From NCBI RefSeq assembly GCF_963676685.1, contig NC_092353.1, positions 51,026,001 to 51,090,000 on the forward strand: DNA of 64,000 nucleotides. Direction: 5' to 3'. The notes beneath the pieces were generated by a model, which made no database searches, was not told the DNA's origin, and saw only the letters and a program-made list of their open reading frames with translations. Both the position numbers and the translations under genes were made by a program. Positions 27,045-52,759 of the stretch are shown in pieces (within the stretch, counting starts at the first letter, position 1; every line of letters begins with the position of its first letter). The DNA comes from Mytilus edulis. Lineage: Eukaryota.

Positions 27045-30000
27045 AATGAATGAATGAATACTTTATTTGCAAGAAGCATATACATGCTATGGCAAACGAA
27101 AATATATACAATATATGACAAACAAAAGACAGCAGAGAACAGTAGTTACAGAGTATACAATAATATTATGACAATATATGCGATCTAATTTTCCAAGCTG
27201 CATTTAAATAGTTACATAGTTTTACTGTCAGAGATTTAGAATGAGCTTGTAATTAATTATCTAACTTGTGCCGATTTGGCCAAGAACAGTAGAATAAAGG
27301 TAAAAATTCTATACGCACAGATCTATACGCTGGACATGATAAAACAAAATGATACTCGTCCTCTAAAACATTCATATTACAACACATACAAATTCTGTTT
27401 TCTCTTTGAGTATTTAGATAACGACCAACTTCAACATTTAATTTAAGTGTGCCGCTACGTAGTTTTGTTAATATAGATACATTACAATGAAAATCTAAGT
27501 ATTTTTCAAAACCAAATTCTAGTTTATATCGTTTATAAATACACAGTTTATTACATTCTTCTAAAGCTGTATTCCAGCTTTGTAAAAATTGATCTTTAAT
27601 ACCTGTTTTTATACAATCAAATGATAATTTACTAGTATCTTGTGAAATCCATACATCATAAAATCCAAGGTTACATAACATTTTTTTTACGTTAGACGCC
27701 CAATTAATTTTACCATTATTTGCATCTTTGTACAAAAGTTTATAAATTTCATATACAATATGAGGTTTATTAGTTACAATATGAATCCAATATTTCAGGA
27801 TTTTATATTTTCTCAAAATATGCAATGGCAGGTGCCCAAGTTCACCATATAAAAAATTTGTAGGGACTTTTTTACCAAGTTTCAAAATAAATCTACAAAA
27901 TCTATTATATATAAGCTCTATATCACCAGCACGATGAAAACCCCATATTTCAGACCCATAACTTAAAACGGATCCAACCATACTATCGAATAGGAAAATT
28001 TGTTGTTCAGTAGTCACATATATTTGTTTCAATGAATTTATTAGTGAAGATAAAGCTCTTGATCCTTGTTGAGATAAACGCTTTTGAGTTTGTAAAAATT
28101 TTCCATTATAGTGGAGCAATACACCGAGGTATACATAGGAGTTCACAATTTCTAATTCTCTGTCGTTGTAATAAAAACGGTTTACCACAGGCCTCCATCC
28201 ATTTCGGAAAACAACAACTTTTGTCTTCTCCGTGTTTACTTCTATGTTCCATTTATTACAATATAGTAGTAATTTATTCAGTAAATGTTGCAACACATTC
28301 GTTGATTTTCCAAAAAGTACGGTATCATCAGCAAATAAGATCAAATATATTAAAAATCCATTTAGAGACACGATGTCTTTATCTGTTTCAACGGAAATAT
28401 CTTGAATATTGTCGTTAATAAAAAACAAAAACAGCAAAGGCGATAAAGGTTCCCCTTGTTTTACACCAAGAAAATTGTCAAACGCATCTGACAGCACTCC
28501 TCCAGATCGTACACGAAGACGCACTGATGAATATAAAGTTTTAATAATAGAAACAAATTTGTTACTAATGCCATTCTTTAGCAGTTTGTATATCAAAATT
28601 CTTCTGTGTAGTTTATCAAAAGCCTCACGAAGGCACAAAAAAGCTGAAGCTTTTGTACTAAAACATGTGATATAATTCCATGCAGTGTAAAAATGGCGTC
28701 AACAGTTGAACGACCAGGACGAAAACCAAACTGATTGTCTATTAATTTCTCTTCGTCTTCCGACCACGACAGCAAACGTTCCGTTAATATGCTAGTAAAT
28801 ATCTTAGAAAGAATGCTCACCAATACAATCGGCCTGAAATTGTTAGGGTCTGACAAATCACCGCTTTTGGGTACAGGGATAACTATACATTCGGTCCAAT
28901 TATCTGGATATATTCCATTGTCAAACATAGAGTTGAAAAGAATTTTAAAAATAGGCGCAAAGAAAAGAGGATTCGCAGCTAACATTTCACCAATTATGTC
29001 ATCATTTCCCGAACTTTTGCCAGTTTTAAGTTTCTGTATAGCTTTTATAATTTCATCTTCTGTAATTTCTGAATCGAGAATATCAATACTTATTTCACCA
29101 ATGTCGGTATTGTTTAATAAATGTAAAACTTCATCACAAAGTTCTGGTGGGTTCGATCCCAAAATATTTTCGAAATAGTTCAACATCTCATTATTTTCAA
29201 CTAAACATTTTGATCTGTTTTTCGGTTTTACAGCGGACCAAAACTTTCTAGGTTCCCTTTTTGCAATATTGCAAAGTTCGATTCCTTTCCTTTTCTTGAA
29301 GTTAAACTGTGCATTACGTTTGACTTTATTAAATTTGTTTCTAGTCGTTATATATGAATGTCTATTTGTATCTGTCGGATGACGCATATAAAAATTTCTA
29401 GCAGTGTGAAATTCTTTTCGTGAATTTGCGCATTTCTCGTTAAACCATTCGTTATTTGGTCGTTTAACATATATATCGTCTCGAGATAAAACAGAGTGTC
29501 CAAAAACTTTATATGCACTTTCATAGATAGTTCGGGTTATCTCCTTCACTGCGTTATTAATATCAATTTCGGAAGATAGATCATTCACCAAACTCAAGAG
29601 GCTGTCACGATGAGACTGTAAAATTTCAATATACTCATCGCACTTATTGTTGTTCCATTTAATGAATTTATGGACTCGGGGGAGGTTTTGTTGACGAATA
29701 ACAGATAAGTCTAGTTCGAAGTAAACAGGCATGTGATCAGAAAATTCGTTCATAGGTAGCACTTTAAAATCATTGATTAATCTACATTCGCTCGGGGGCA
29801 CTAGTAGGTAGTCATTTACACTTCTTCCTTAGGCTGTACAGAACGTAAAATTACCATTTTTGTCATTACAAAGCCTGCCATTGGCTACAACTAAACCCGT
29901 GTTAAAACACATTTGTAATAGTTTACGGCCAAATGCATTAACTGTTTTGTCCATTGAACTTCTGTCAGAAATAATGGGGTTTACAACGTGCTCAACACTT

Positions 30001-30501
30001 TCGACATATTTATCTAGATCGTCATTAAGTAAAAAATCACTTAATTCACCTATGCGGCTTTTTAAATCTCCACATACCAAAACAATACCTTTATCACTAT
30101 AGTTATTTACAATACTTTCAATAATATCGTGAAAATCTATATCACATAATTGGTAATAATTAGATCTTTCGTGTGGTACATAAGAAAAACAAATAAAAAT
30201 ATCTTTATCAGTATCAAAGAAACTATGGTCAAGTTTTAACCGAATAATACCATCATTTAATTCTTTTTCAACAATAATACCGTTACATAAAAAACTCTTA
30301 CAAAAAACAGCAATACCTCCTTCATTTCTAGTACCTATATTTTTATTACGAAATACACAAGAAATTCTGTCAAAACCATCTATAACTAACAAGTTATTAT
30401 CTTTTAACCAAGTCTCACTGAGAAATAAAATATTATAATCATTTATTAAGTTCAAAAAGTCATTATCTTTGTAGACTGAAGTTAAACCATGAACATTCCA
30501 A
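27045..30501 (-). mobile_element. 5'-truncated non-LTR retrotransposon (L2/CR1 group), APE endonuclease + RT, inactivated
   Basis: APE motifs WNVHGL, LSETW, GD and SDH; RT motifs FRPI, QFGFR, GVKQG-PLSP and LFADD; C-terminal CxxC..EDEYH..C. AATAAA plus (ATTC)n 3' tail at ~27045-27068. TSD CATGGTG at 27038-27044 and 30502-30508. Confidence 0.92.
27166..30501 (-). pseudogene. LINE ORF2 broken by a stop at 29829-29831, a frameshift near 28640 and a stop at 27253-27255
   Basis: Track ORFs 29829-30512 and 28593-29801 share one frame separated by a single TAA. ORF 27253-28638 continues past its TAA as LQAHSKSLTVKLCNYLNAAWKIRSHILS* to 27166. Confidence 0.85.
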
Positions 30502-30973
30502 CATGGTGGCAATATGTAATTAATTTATGTATTTTATTGATTTGTTCAACATATAGAATTATTTAAGTTTCAAGTCTCCATTATATTTTAACAAAAGTAA
30601 TTGAATTAATCAAAGCTTTAAAAAAAAGTGGAAAACTGTTAATTAAAATCGATCAGATTTTTTTTTATCATTTTAAGAGATATTTTTTTATTTTATTCCT
30701 TTAATGCTGTCAACAATAATTAGTCAATTTTTATGTATATATACTAATTTATATATAAAAATAAAAAATAATTTATATATAAAAATCAAAAATGATAAAA
30801 AAATGATTGAATCAATAATGAGTTTGACTGTCCCTTTGGTATCTTTCGTCCCTCTTTTGTTGACTGTCTGATAATTTTTTTTATTTGTTTTAATCATCGA
30901 GGACGTGGGTTGTTCCGTTTGTCATGTCGGAGTCCTTTATTCATTGATACATGGCATTGTTTTTGGTCATTAC

Positions 30974-47079: not shown

Positions 47080-47888
47080 AACAAGAATGTGTCCAAAGTA
47101 CACAGATGCCCCACTCGCACTATCCTTTACCATGTTCCATGGACCGTGAAATTGGGTAATAATCTAATTTGGCATTAAAATTAGAAAGATTATAATATAG
47201 GGAACATATGTACTAAGTTTCAAGTTGATTGGACTTCAATTTTATCAAAAACTACCTTGACCAAAAACTTTAGCCTGAAACTCCCACTTTCATTTTCTAT
47301 GTTTAGTGGACCGTGAAATTGGGGTCCAAAGTCCAATTTGGCTTTAAAATTAAAAAGATCATATCATAAGCAACAAGTTTACTAAGTTTCAAGTTGATTG
47401 GACTTCAGCTTCATCAAAAACTACCTTGACCAAAAACTTTAACCTGAAACTCCCACTTTCATTTTCTATGTTCAGTGGACCGTGAATTGGGGTCAAAAGT
47501 CTAATTTGGCTTTAAAATTAGAAAGATCATATTATAAGCAACAAGTGTACTAAGTTTCAAGTTGATTGGACTTCAGCTTCATCAAAAACTACCTTGACCA
47601 AAAACTTTAACCTGAAACTCCCACTTTCATTTTCTATGTTCAGTGGACCGTGAAATTGGGGTCAAAAGTCTAATTTGGCTTTAAAATTAGAAAGATCATA
47701 TCATAAGCAACAAGTGTACTAAGTTTCAAGTTGATTGGACTTCAGCTTCATCGAAAACTACCTTGACCAAAAACTTTAACCTGAACGGACGTACAGACGG
47801 ACGGACGGACGAACGGAAGCACAGACGGTCGAACGGAGCCACAGACCAGAAAACATAATGCCCCACTACTACCGTAGGTGAGGCATAA
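47080..47888 (+). mobile_element. Helentron-associated (HINE/pearl-like) element with a ~168-bp internal satellite (~4 units)
   Basis: Starts aacaagaatgtgtcc. ggaccgtgaa recurs at 47141, 47308, 47477 and 47645. (GGAC)n microsatellite at ~47785-47835; terminal hairpin ATGCC...GGCAT. Confidence 0.8.
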
Positions 47889-49404
47889 CAAAACGAGCAA
47901 ACAATGGTAATAATGGTTATTTTTATAGCTGAAAAATAGTTTTGTATTTTTGGTTTATTTCGAAGCTTATGTCTTTTTAATTTAAATTATGAAATATTTA
48001 GGAATTTAGTAAAAGTCAAAATAGTTGTCAATGATGGAATTATATTATACATTTAAAAACCAGTTTGTGTTCAATATGTATTTTAAATTATAGAACACTT
48101 TCTATTCCATTGATACAGGTGGTGATGTACAGTGACCTATTTAAAAATTGTTTTATTGCTGTTACAACACACATGTTGAAATATATTAATAACTCTTTTT
48201 GTTTACCGAAATAAAGCGAACCATTTTAATAAACTAACACATCTTTATACATTACAAGCAATTAAGAACTCATTATGACGAGTGAGTGATCATAAACTAT
48301 CAATTTACCAATAAGTTGATACGAACATATACTACACTAAAATCAAATGGAGAGAGAAAGAAATAGTCCAGGTCTGTTCCTGTTATTAATGTTAGTTTTA
48401 AGATAGATAATACAGAATTCTGGTTACCTCTCTTTGTATAGTATATCACATGGTGTATATAAAAAGGATATGTATGATTGCCAATGAAACAACTATCCAC
48501 CAAAGTTCAAATGAAGTGGATGTAAGCAAGTTAAACAATGAGAAAACAATATTCGGCATAACTTTCTATACAATGCCCCTACATGAAAAAGAGCAAACAA
48601 TTTAAGGTAGCACAATACAGAGATTTTTTTATCCCCAATCAGACATCTTTAAACTGATGTAATTCTACTCATCCTTCTTTAATTCTTTAAAGAAAGGAGA
48701 ATGATTAATCTTTCAAATTGTGATAATTTCATTATTACATAATTATTACATAATTAATTGTTATGTAATTAGTTGCTATATTGTGATGTCCATACTTGAA
48801 TGAATTTAGCTTCTTTGTTATTCATAGCATCCCAGAATATTTTATAGATTCTTGCACAACACAGTTTGAGCTCCAAAACAGTGTCTCAGATTTTTCCTAT
48901 TGTATTTCATTCTCTCATAAATCTTCAATGAAGTTTGCAACATCAATTCATAAGAGATCACTAAATTCAATGTGGTATATATTTTGTTCTATTGATTGAT
49001 CGCCCGCATTAAGAATCCAAATTGCAGGGTCGTTTCAAATTCCGGACTTTGTAATTAACTAGGCGTCCGTTTTCGTCCGTCGTCGTTGTCACTAATTTTT
49101 ACAAAGATTATTTCTGATGAAACTACAGAGCCAAATGTAATCAAGCTTAACCAAAATCGATATTATCGAAAATACTCAGCACGATAAGTTTTACAAATAA
49201 GTCTCAAGAATGAGGAAATTTTAGAGAGCACAAAAGATCCACAAAGTAGGAAATAGAAATAAAAGTTGGTATTGCTGAAATCGTTGGTTAACTCTTATAT
49301 AAGTATTGCTAAGTGCCCTTTAATTGGGATTTTAACCAATATTTGTGGTTACGAATCGTATTAATCAAACTATTTATTGATACAAATTATAGATATATAT
49401 ATAT

Positions 49405-49682
49405 CTGATCTGTAACAATAACATCTCCATGCCTTATATATCATGTACTGTAGTACGACGCTAGATTAAAACTGACGAGGAAAGGTAACACACAGCCACC
49501 AAAAGCTTTATTTTAGTGAAGCCTAGGTGGTCGTGTGGTCTAGCGGGACGGCTGCAGTGCAGGCGATTCCGTGTCACGATATCTTAGTAGCATGGGTTCA
49601 AATCCCGGCGAGGGAAGAACAAAAATATTGCGAAAGCAAATTTACAGATCTAACATTGTTGGGTTGATGTTTAGACGAGTTG
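49405..49682 (+). mobile_element. (TA)n-inserted SINE-like element with an internal tRNA-like Pol III promoter and an upstream hammerhead-like motif
   Basis: Flanked by TA runs (~49394-49404, ~49683-49703). A box TGGTCGTGTGG (49528-49538), B box GGTTCAAATCC (49595-49605), HHR-like motif 49466-49516. Confidence 0.7.
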
Positions 49683-50584
49683 TATATATATGTTTATATA
49701 TATACAAACTTGAAAATCAAATCTGACAAGTAAGACAAGATCTGCTTATAGGAATTATTTTTTTTCATAGATGAAGAGTGTAACAAGTTTTTGTTTTTGT
49801 GCAACCACTGTGCAAACCGAAACTGTAAAATATTTATCAGCAATACAAATTCAATAATAAAGAAAAGTTCAGCCAATGTTAACTTGAACACACTATTACA
49901 TTATCTTGCCCCCGTAAGTCTTTTATGTTTTTTATTCATTTTATATGTTTCAGAGTTTAGTGAGACGTCGATATTTTTAAATCTCATAATTTCTGTCTCG
50001 CTGAATAATTAATGATTGCTATAAAACTAGGTTTAACCCACGATTTTCTTGCATGAGAAAATGCATGTTTTAAGTCAGGAATATGACGATTGTTATCCAT
50101 TCGTTTGATGTGTTTGAGGTTTTGATTTGATCATCTGATTAGGGACCTTCTGTTTTGAATTTTCCCCGGAGTTCAGTATTTTTGTGATTTTACTATTTAG
50201 AAACTAAATTCATATGCATTTTAATTCCCCCACACAATATACCGGATGGGCCAACTGACAATAATGGTCATGGTGACCTATTTGTAGATCTGAACAGTAA
50301 TGCGGTTTACAGTTTGTCTCTATATATGATAATATTTAATAACCAAAAACTGCAAAATTTCCATAAAATTACCGATCCAGGCGCAGCAACCATAAGAAAA
50401 TGCCTGTTTTAAGTCAGGAATGTGACGGTTGTTATCCATTCGTTTGATGTGTTTGAGCTTTTGATTTGATCCTCTGATATGGGACCTTCTGTTTTGAATG
50501 TTCCCCGGATTTCATTTTTTTTGTGATTTTACTAGTTAGAAACTAAATTCATATGCAGTATAATTCTCCCACACAATATACCGG

Positions 50585-51415: not shown

Positions 51416-51810
51416 TTAGATTTTGATGCCGCTAAAAGTTGACCACGTATCTCCAATCATGTATTTTCCATTAGTACTAATCCTGATAGATACTTTGTCA
51501 TTTTTACTCATTTGTAAAACAGCACTCTGACTAGATGGCATGTATGTAGACATCCCTTCAGCTCCAGCATGATTTCTTGCTATAATCGTGTCATTCAGTA
51601 TTAATTTTGTGTAGAAAGTCTTGCCAGTATAAGCAAGAACTGTCCAGGTGAAGTAGTAAAGTCCATCTACGCGTGCAGTGAAGACACCAGTCGACTTATC
51701 ATATCCCCCTCCGATGTTGGTTGTAACTGTGTCGAACACAACTATAGCCCCGTTACCAATATTCTGCAAATCTTTGGAATTAGATACCAGAAAACCAACC
51801 TTTCCGGAAC
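51416..51810 (-). CDS. C1q-domain-containing protein, last exon (gC1q globular head)
   Basis: Acceptor ttttaattAG (51812-51811). SGKVGFLVSNSKDLQNIGNGAIVVFDTVTTNIGGGYDKSTGVFTARVDGLYYFTW...STFSGIKI* carries the gC1q motifs FDxVxxNxG, YxxxTGxF, GxYxF and TFSG. AATAAA overlaps the stop (51416-51411). Confidence 0.95.
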
Positions 51811-52234
51811 CTAATTAAAATAGTAATTTGGATCACAAATTCATTCAGCATTGTCAGAACAATGTACAAGGTAAGTCTGTTAAATTAATAAATGTAGCGA
51901 TTACACCTAAATTCAGGAGTATCATTTGTTAATATTTTTTTTCTTTTTTGAATTCCAGGTAAATTTGATTCAAAGTGAGTAGTGTGATCTCCGCTAATTA
52001 TTAGTACATGTAGGTTTGAATATAAAAACATAAGTTCGTGGCAGTACACAATATAGAGGTCAACAACAAATAATTGTCTATACGATAGGTCAATCTCGAT
52101 CCTTCTAGAGAAGCTGTGAATTAATATAACGGAGACTATTACCAAAGTACGAAATTTAAATACATTTAAATAAAATCCTCCCCCAGCCCCTTTTTTAATA
52201 TTTAAGAATTTGATATTGATATATTCAAACTTAC

Positions 52235-52410
52235 TCGGAGTTGAAGGACTCTGGTTACAGTCACATTTTCCGTCATTATCTTCCACAAGTTTCAACTGGT
52301 ACTGAATACTCTTCATAAGACTGGCATTCGTTCGACATGATTTGTGGCAGCTTCCGCCTGATGTCAAGATGGAGGTCAGTATTGCCGCAATGGCGATAGC
52401 ATGAAAATAA
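52235..52410 (-). CDS. C1qDC exon 2: signal peptide and Cys-containing linker
   Basis: Acceptor tgttttgtAG (52412-52411), donor A|GTAAG (52234). YFHAIAIAAILTSILTSGGSCHKSCRTNASLMKSIQYQLKLVEDNDGKCDCNQSPSTP; phase 1 joins in frame to the last exon. Confidence 0.85.
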
Positions 52411-52759
52411 CTACAAAACAGTATTGTTTTATTTAAAAATATAGTATGTCTATAAGTTTGTCTTTAAAAGTTTCTGAAATTTGCTTACCCTCTGTTTGCA
52501 TAGGTTCCAATAGCCAACTCTCAAAAACGTTTTGACATGCGGTCAATTACCAAAATGTGGTGCATTTGTTTGGTCATGTGTAATAAGGTAAAGAATATGT
52601 GATTCAAATATTTGATCTGAAAGGATATTATTTACCCCTTTTTTTAACGTCAATTGTTTTGTTTTTTATAAAAGTAGATGGCCTACAATGAAATAATTCA
52701 TAAAAGAATATTAAAGATTAATATGATTTTATAATAAAAAAAATATATATAGCTCAAAC

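Follow-up and report, generated by a model that had tools for sequence, protein, structure and literature searches.

Several described systems share features with the repeat family reported here. About 5000 type I hammerhead ribozymes have been reported in repeats of 350-390 bp in Mytilus galloprovincialis (Cervera and de la Pena 2020; PMC7229834). Non-LTR retrozymes (PMC7229834; bioRxiv 10.64898/2026.07.22.740005) and the present element are alike in being protein-free short tandem units in dispersed arrays, with mobilization by Penelope-like elements (PLEs) proposed and RNA circles possible for both. The element differs from the retrozymes in its unit length (442 bp, not 350-390 bp), in having no conserved hammerhead and in carrying internal A and B boxes. 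We also find in this genome a separate abundant family, distinct from the element, which has textbook hammerheads detected by Rfam at a spacing of ~355-368 bp; as matched by description, it is likely to be the published mussel retrozyme. The initial annotation of the locus did not recognize its proposed hybrid as described in mussels; retrozymes as such are described there, and the element is probably a different family.

The Sm-alpha and Sj-alpha repeats of Schistosoma (PMC6765202) likewise hold a Pol III-type promoter within tandem repeats, such that an upstream unit transcribes the next. The Sm-alpha hammerhead is active, whereas that of the element is degenerate, and the insertion ends of the element match those of PLEs. 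According to Craig et al. 2021 (PMC8557442), PLEs are recognized by a 3' end that is fixed, by truncation at the 5' end, and by inversions and partial tandems. The element has all four, and it further shares with EN+ PLEs of Neptune/Nematis type, and with non-autonomous derivatives such as Chlamys MRC1, a tail, a preference for (TA)n and a possible, modest similarity near the end to an autonomous family. The tail is ~90 nt in the element and in the local autonomous families, compared with 30-40 bp in the elements of that source, from which the element also differs in its tRNA-type promoter and its lack of a conserved hammerhead. Non-autonomous elements with a Pol III promoter derived from a small RNA are otherwise represented by the TRIMp3 elements Cassandra, Helenus and Ajax (PMC10886601), in which the promoter is internal to the terminal repeat, and by bivalve tRNA-SINEs (PMC11481361), for which tandems are also described; the helpers of these are LTR elements or LINEs, whereas the likely helper of the element is a Penelope.

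The sequence analysed, referred to here as the window, is a stretch of 64,000 nucleotides from Mytilus edulis (assembly GCF_963676685.1, contig NC_092353.1, positions 51,026,001 to 51,090,000 of the forward strand); other loci are cited by number (L). The features of the copy in the window are listed in Table 1. The initial annotation had described a 280-bp element, and the motifs that it named (TTAAAA, CTGACGA, TTTTAG, the A-box-like and B-box-like sequences and the TA runs on both sides) are all found where it placed them. Its upstream 115 bp does belong to the repeat, but the size was misjudged: the copy is really a truncated piece of a unit of ~442 bp. Against the majority sequence built from 73 full units it shows 11 differences, and it belongs to an older subfamily. 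The A-box-like and B-box-like motifs are assigned from the box consensus.

Table 1. Features of the element copy and its flanks, by position in the window.
Feature	Position	Strand	Remarks
(TA)n run at 5' junction	49393-49404	+	Target remnant; copy truncated at this point
Truncated element copy	49405-49682	+	Unit positions 165-442 of the ~442-bp repeat unit
Hammerhead-like stretch	49466-49516	+	Probable relic; not conserved family-wide as a ribozyme
TTAAAA	49466-71	+	
Hammerhead core heptamer CTGACGA	49472-78	+	Intact in window copy
Conserved hairpin	49489-49537	+	Arms 49489-500 and 49526-37, plus 49505-10 and 49517-22 (covarying)
GAAA position	49501-04	+	Reads AAAA; G12 mutated in window copy
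TTTTAG	49511-16	+	
Hairpin loop, T-rich, hypervariable	49511-49516	+	Candidate Pol III terminator; only T4 in window copy
5'-junction hotspot of other copies	49517-49520	+	8-11 nt before A box; predicted Pol III start
A-box-like motif, tRNA-type promoter	49528-49538	+	Assigned from box consensus
B-box-like motif	49595-49605	+	Assigned from box consensus; no ARAGORN tRNA cloverleaf
Fixed 3' end region	49640-49682	+	AGAC at 49673-76, similar to the termini of families C, D and G (Neptune-type Penelope)
(TA)n target run, 3' junction	49683-49703	+	

Three other features of the window were noted. Exons of what is likely a C1q-domain gene, judged by eye from the translation, lie at 51416-52463 on the minus strand, ~1.7 kb from the element. 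A frameshifted LINE with endonuclease-like and RT-like frames (by eye) occupies 27253-30524, also on the minus strand. A tandem array of 169-bp units with ACGG repeats after it (47113-47846) resembles the pearl or Helitron-type repeats of bivalves.

A first search of the 1.37-Gb genome with the window fragment gave 2664 candidates, the matches lying mostly on 14 large contigs. Two exact patterns, one for an anchor and one for the A-box region, gave 3937 and 4446 matches, respectively, and none in the controls, so that anchor matches number ~4,000. The flanks of 73 distinct full units define a protein-free unit of ~442 bp, and tandem arrays of such short units reach six to seven units. The 3' termini of 202 arrays fall at the unit end in 119 cases, near position 100 in 30 and elsewhere in 53, and a second fixed end lies 94 nt past the fixed 3' end, with both ends in TA runs. 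The proposal that the element targets (TA)n is upheld, TATATA following 89 of the 119 unit-end termini. The 5' starts (n = 160) are scattered over the whole unit. An insertion typically opens with a 3' fragment and continues with at least one full unit, and inverted pieces are often present. Together with the tail, this is the structural pattern of a non-autonomous Penelope-like element. Kinship with retrozyme-type and Penelope-type elements is supported, the initial annotation having suggested a retrozyme hybrid. Among 72 long copies, the divergence of subfamilies from their own majority is 0.1% (n = 19), 1.0% (n = 10) and, for the type found in the window, 3.3% (n = 12). A metagenome scan matched two contigs, both of the same family, and gave no distant relatives, and the motifs of the element had no match in 12 of the 33 supplements of PMC10294476. 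At six loci (L098, L136, L142, L168, L182 and L188) we note TA-targeting families, both PLEs and non-autonomous elements, nested in one another's ends.

The tRNA-like internal promoter boxes put forward in the initial annotation are supported, the A-box region having 4446 exact matches. ARAGORN called no tRNA in the window or the element. The permuted layout was also correctly recognized: the promoter lies inside the insertion unit. Its head is internal in most copies and the 3' end resembles those of PLEs, where a tRNA-SINE would have its head at the 5' end and a LINE-like 3' tail. In the first junction sets, 5' junctions concentrate at unit positions 276-282. The start-site set comprised the first 100 of the 4446 A-box matches; the upstream anchor was present in 53 as well, and the other 47 were read. 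Among these 47, as judged by eye, 12 (plus one ambiguous copy) start 8-11 nt before the A box, three start closer to it and ten (nine of them independent) start in the next 57 nt upstream; one is internally deleted and 20 are intact. The excess at the hotspot (12 of 21, p = 1.2e-6) refers to an interval defined by the earlier junction sets, with loci L071 and L079 present in both, and TA/AG microhomology may contribute to it. The hotspot lies where a Pol III start is expected, and RNA polymerase III is likely to transcribe the element from the internal tRNA-type promoter.

The hotspot coincides with the 3' arm of a conserved hairpin, the loop of which contains the only run of five or more T residues in the majority unit. 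This run is interrupted in some subfamilies, some of which have no T4, and a T4 at unit position 108 would have to be read through. Pol III products usually have paired ends and a U tail. An RNA running from the hotspot to the T run of the next unit would be ~440 nt in length and would have both properties. The arms of the hairpin would form the 3' and 5' ends of this unit-length RNA, and the rotated unit RNA is predicted to fold with its ends paired (pair probabilities of 0.87-1.0). Across 27 distinct sequences the hairpin has 93.8% of its cells paired, with four two-sided pairs, the search pattern itself having fixed columns 71-81 of the alignment; its covariation score was reached by none of 500 shuffles, but relatedness alone can inflate such a score. 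At least four of five pairs are kept in all 64 copies that were not chosen by similarity to the window. We also note that (GA)n expansions occur exactly at the 5'-junction hotspot in L226, L239 and L254, as if a reverse transcriptase had stuttered at the 5' end of an RNA.

Two full-length sister families show a comparable organization. The first, E2 (L113:2086-2820, L170 and L189-L218), has 475-bp units, 190 matches to its A-box pattern and multi-unit arrays with the same layout and a cleaner A box; its alignment to the element scores 179.5, compared with a shuffle maximum of 54. The second, E3 (L061:1860-2290 and L138:1950-2700), is ~430 bp in length, has degenerate A and B boxes and has the end sequence TAGGCA, similar to that of another Neptune-type family (L097). 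In both sisters the hairpin is predicted with different letters, and both are without the hammerhead core.

Several families with an intact open reading frame for RT with a GIY-YIG endonuclease at the C terminus are present in the genome. The CX2-5CxxC linker that marks Neptune and Nematis (PMC8557442) occurs in all four families examined and in family G; we apply the label Neptune-type from this motif, common to Nematis too. In families C, D and G the terminal AGAC precedes TA, and an end of this kind recurs 89, 93 and 96 nt further on; in the element and its two sisters the second end lies at 94, 88 and 89 nt. In an anchored test designed after this layout had been seen, the interior between the two ends scored z = 2.8 against family C (one of 300 shuffles as high) for the element and 4.6 and 4.7 (none of 300) for the sisters; against D and G the likeness is weaker (z of 0.2-2.4). 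Unanchored local alignments to families C and D do not reach significance, 34 and 106 of 300 shuffles doing equally well, and for 3'-end local alignments 199 and 96 of 300 shuffles scored as high. Any terminal likeness to an autonomous PLE is modest and consists of the two-end layout and the anchored comparison with family C. The next bases of the element are TA-rich at both ends, so that a nicked (TA)n target could prime inside the RNA. In our view, the element is likely to be inserted by a Neptune-type Penelope RT/GIY-YIG endonuclease.

PLE families A and B also have ends in TA runs but are without AGAC ends. Naiad was rejected as a helper: two of four short element motifs were absent from the PMC8557442 supplement and one had a chance-like match, and the Naiad 3' regions inspected are without obvious similarity to the element. 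The Naiad protein at L100 matches, by eye, the published Naiad_Mgal sequence.

The most consistent interpretation of these data is that the family is a Penelope-dependent, non-autonomous element of Pol III type which inserts in (TA)n and carries a probable hammerhead relic. We consider this reading probable, the transcription, circularity and partner of the element being what we infer. In a tandem pair, Pol III would start ~10 nt before the A box, read past the unit end into the next unit and terminate in the T run that immediately precedes the following start site. The product would be an RNA of ~440 nt, its ends paired into a stem and its 3' end bearing an oligo-U tail. A Penelope enzyme would then nick (TA)n and prime within the RNA at either of the two sites at which AGAC is followed by TA. 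Where the reverse transcriptase halted at the RNA 5' end, the hotspot would result; where it crossed the paired ends, by a template jump or on a ligated circle, it would leave partial tandems, and these would rebuild the promoter-terminator pair.

An alternative that overlaps with this reading keeps the same element and partner but takes as main template a closed, ribozyme-independent RNA circle that is copied repeatedly, the linear Pol III RNA being its precursor. We regard it as possible, if doubtful. The sequence data that bear on it are assembled contigs of eight runs, selected for holding the query. Five small runs from five studies, which we guess to be RNA, contain a closed 441-nt cycle without flanks, as a single 471-nt contig (441 + 30) in X1, X2 and X13 and as closed cycles in X9 and X17. 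The cycle is of the variant with U at hammerhead core position 9 (U9) and closes across the predicted start and stop; if the contigs are RNA, it implies that a linear unit RNA is not the sole form. Arrays of six to seven units also suit a circle, and paired RNA ends would favour ligation. Cyclic contigs can, however, also come from read-through RNA or from DNA in tandem, the choice of runs depended on the query and their RNA status is a guess, and a circle alone predicts no 5'-junction hotspot. One metatranscriptome carries both variants, and two runs, X3 (1705 contigs) and X10 (5486 contigs), have the appearance of DNA. The loop differs between adjacent units in five of 12 close pairs, compared with two of 12 for a control A run, and this comparison did not discriminate between a circle and template jumping.

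The initial annotation had read the hammerhead-like stretch as a type I hammerhead which, active as a dimer, cuts multimers before the tRNA head in the manner of Sm-alpha and the retrozymes. We find this very unlikely and consider the stretch a probable relic. Judged by the core consensus C3 U4 G5 A6 N7 G8 A9 (PMC3088659), the statement that only G12 departs from the core holds for the window copy but not for the family, in which CTGACGA is kept in 1175 of 3937 anchored copies and broken in ~70%. Position 9 is mostly U, including in the two youngest subfamilies (0.1% and 1.0%) as well as in the cyclic contigs. A hand count of the first 100 listed anchored copies gave 67 T, 30 A and 3 G, and counts by script, in two sets assembled without regard to similarity, gave 17 T to 16 A and 18 T to 13 A; A9 is retained in the diverged copies L215, L167 and L007. 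According to PMC3088659, mutation leads to a drastic loss of activity at most core positions, with some natural variants being active. The G looked for at 49501 is indeed found in most copies (46 of 51 aligned rows, from loci picked by likeness to the window and with five rows duplicated from overlapping loci), and GAAA is present in 61 of 64 copies not picked by similarity. When the unit was shuffled 5000 times, a CUGANGA..GAAA pair appeared on the sense strand in 1.1% of cases, which indicates that the core-like pair is probably not due to chance.

The 6-bp stem I of the initial annotation needs the A at 49515, a minority base found in 10 of 51 rows, the consensus being four A-U pairs; minimal PLE hammerheads with a stem I of 4-5 bp are weakly active as dimers (PMC4209133). 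Covariation of stems I and II, which the initial annotation had proposed as a check, was absent, stems I-III showing no two-sided change in 27 distinct sequences; stem I is 72% paired and the base of stem II 74%, and all 500 shuffles were equally well paired. The full descriptor fits five of the 64 unbiased copies in the original register, where the GCUU loop of stem III is not self-complementary, and three of 64 in an alternative register with a 2-nt loop, which AGCU fits. AGCU after GAA is also the register of the clean minimal hammerheads in the 3' regions of the local Neptune-type families D and G. Unlike in a retrozyme, a complete hammerhead is not found in every unit.

The conserved hairpin overlaps the hammerhead bases, the two folds are mutually exclusive, and their predicted energies are -24 to -31 kcal/mol for the hairpin and +3 to +5 kcal/mol for the hammerhead. 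A register that uses the covarying hairpin as stem III was rejected, as it has no partner for stem I and a C at 16.1. When hammerhead cores were sought at other sites and on the minus strand, E1 (L072) and E3 had none, and E2 has one loose core match, outside the homologous site. Rfam gave no ribozyme or tRNA match in the window or in four loci with the element family; the search did detect the canonical hammerhead of the retrozyme (33 bits), yet not the minimal one of family D, and is thus insensitive to minimal forms. The insertions do not reflect the cut predicted after 49510 either: the excess of 5' junctions lies instead at 49517-49520, and the T run expected after such a cut is clearly included in none of 13 hotspot junctions. 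A core lost in most copies, stems that do not covary, a rival hairpin that does and sister families without the core all argue against self-cleavage.

Also very unlikely is an ordinary tRNA-derived SINE or satellite, duplicated in tandem at the DNA level and mobilized by a LINE, since, for all that A and B boxes are present and SINE tandems occur in bivalves (PMC11481361), the inserted unit has its promoter inside, the two (TA)n ends, partial tandems and inversions fit PLEs, the inter-end stretch resembles a PLE, and no TA-tailed entry of ~440 bp occurs among 30 of the 37 Mytilida rows of that source.

Returning to the Penelope-dependent Pol III element, we suggest a fuller history only tentatively, and think it rather unlikely in all its parts. 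The family may be a Penelope-derived, retrozyme-like parasite that gained a tRNA promoter and lost its hammerhead, so that the Pol III start and stop would bound the RNA, a conserved terminal stem would join its ends, and the RNA would be closed into a ribozyme-independent circle or crossed by the Penelope RT. If this history is true, the family would be a class of SINE helped by a Penelope element, and would offer a new path to tandem or circular templates.

SINEs ride on LINEs, and Pol III TRIMs ride on LTR elements. Our searches of the open-access literature returned no Pol III element with a Penelope helper. The spread of three sister families without a conserved hammerhead bears on the purpose of the hammerheads of PLEs. 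The genome holds both a subfamily that has diverged by ~0.1% and an intact candidate for the helper, which makes PLE trans-mobilization, internal priming at (TA)n and the origin of partial tandems directly testable.

Further Penelope families and hammerhead-like motifs were noted in the same genome. Family C (L127, L128, L135 and L136) is a young, intact Neptune-type family encoding 911 amino acids, with near-identical tandem and inverted copies and a hammerhead-like 3' motif of atypical core. Families D and G (L131, L142 and L169) are 77% identical over the C-terminal 150 amino acids and have near-identical minimal hammerheads, with U4C in D. A different hammerhead-like core recurs in L125, L127, L134 and L138; it reads CTGAAGA..GAAA and has a stem II of 4 bp. 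A further PLE family (L130:2964-6100, L091, L092 and L101) has a second, downstream Cys/His-rich reading frame and a canonical-looking hammerhead ~800 nt after the main stop.
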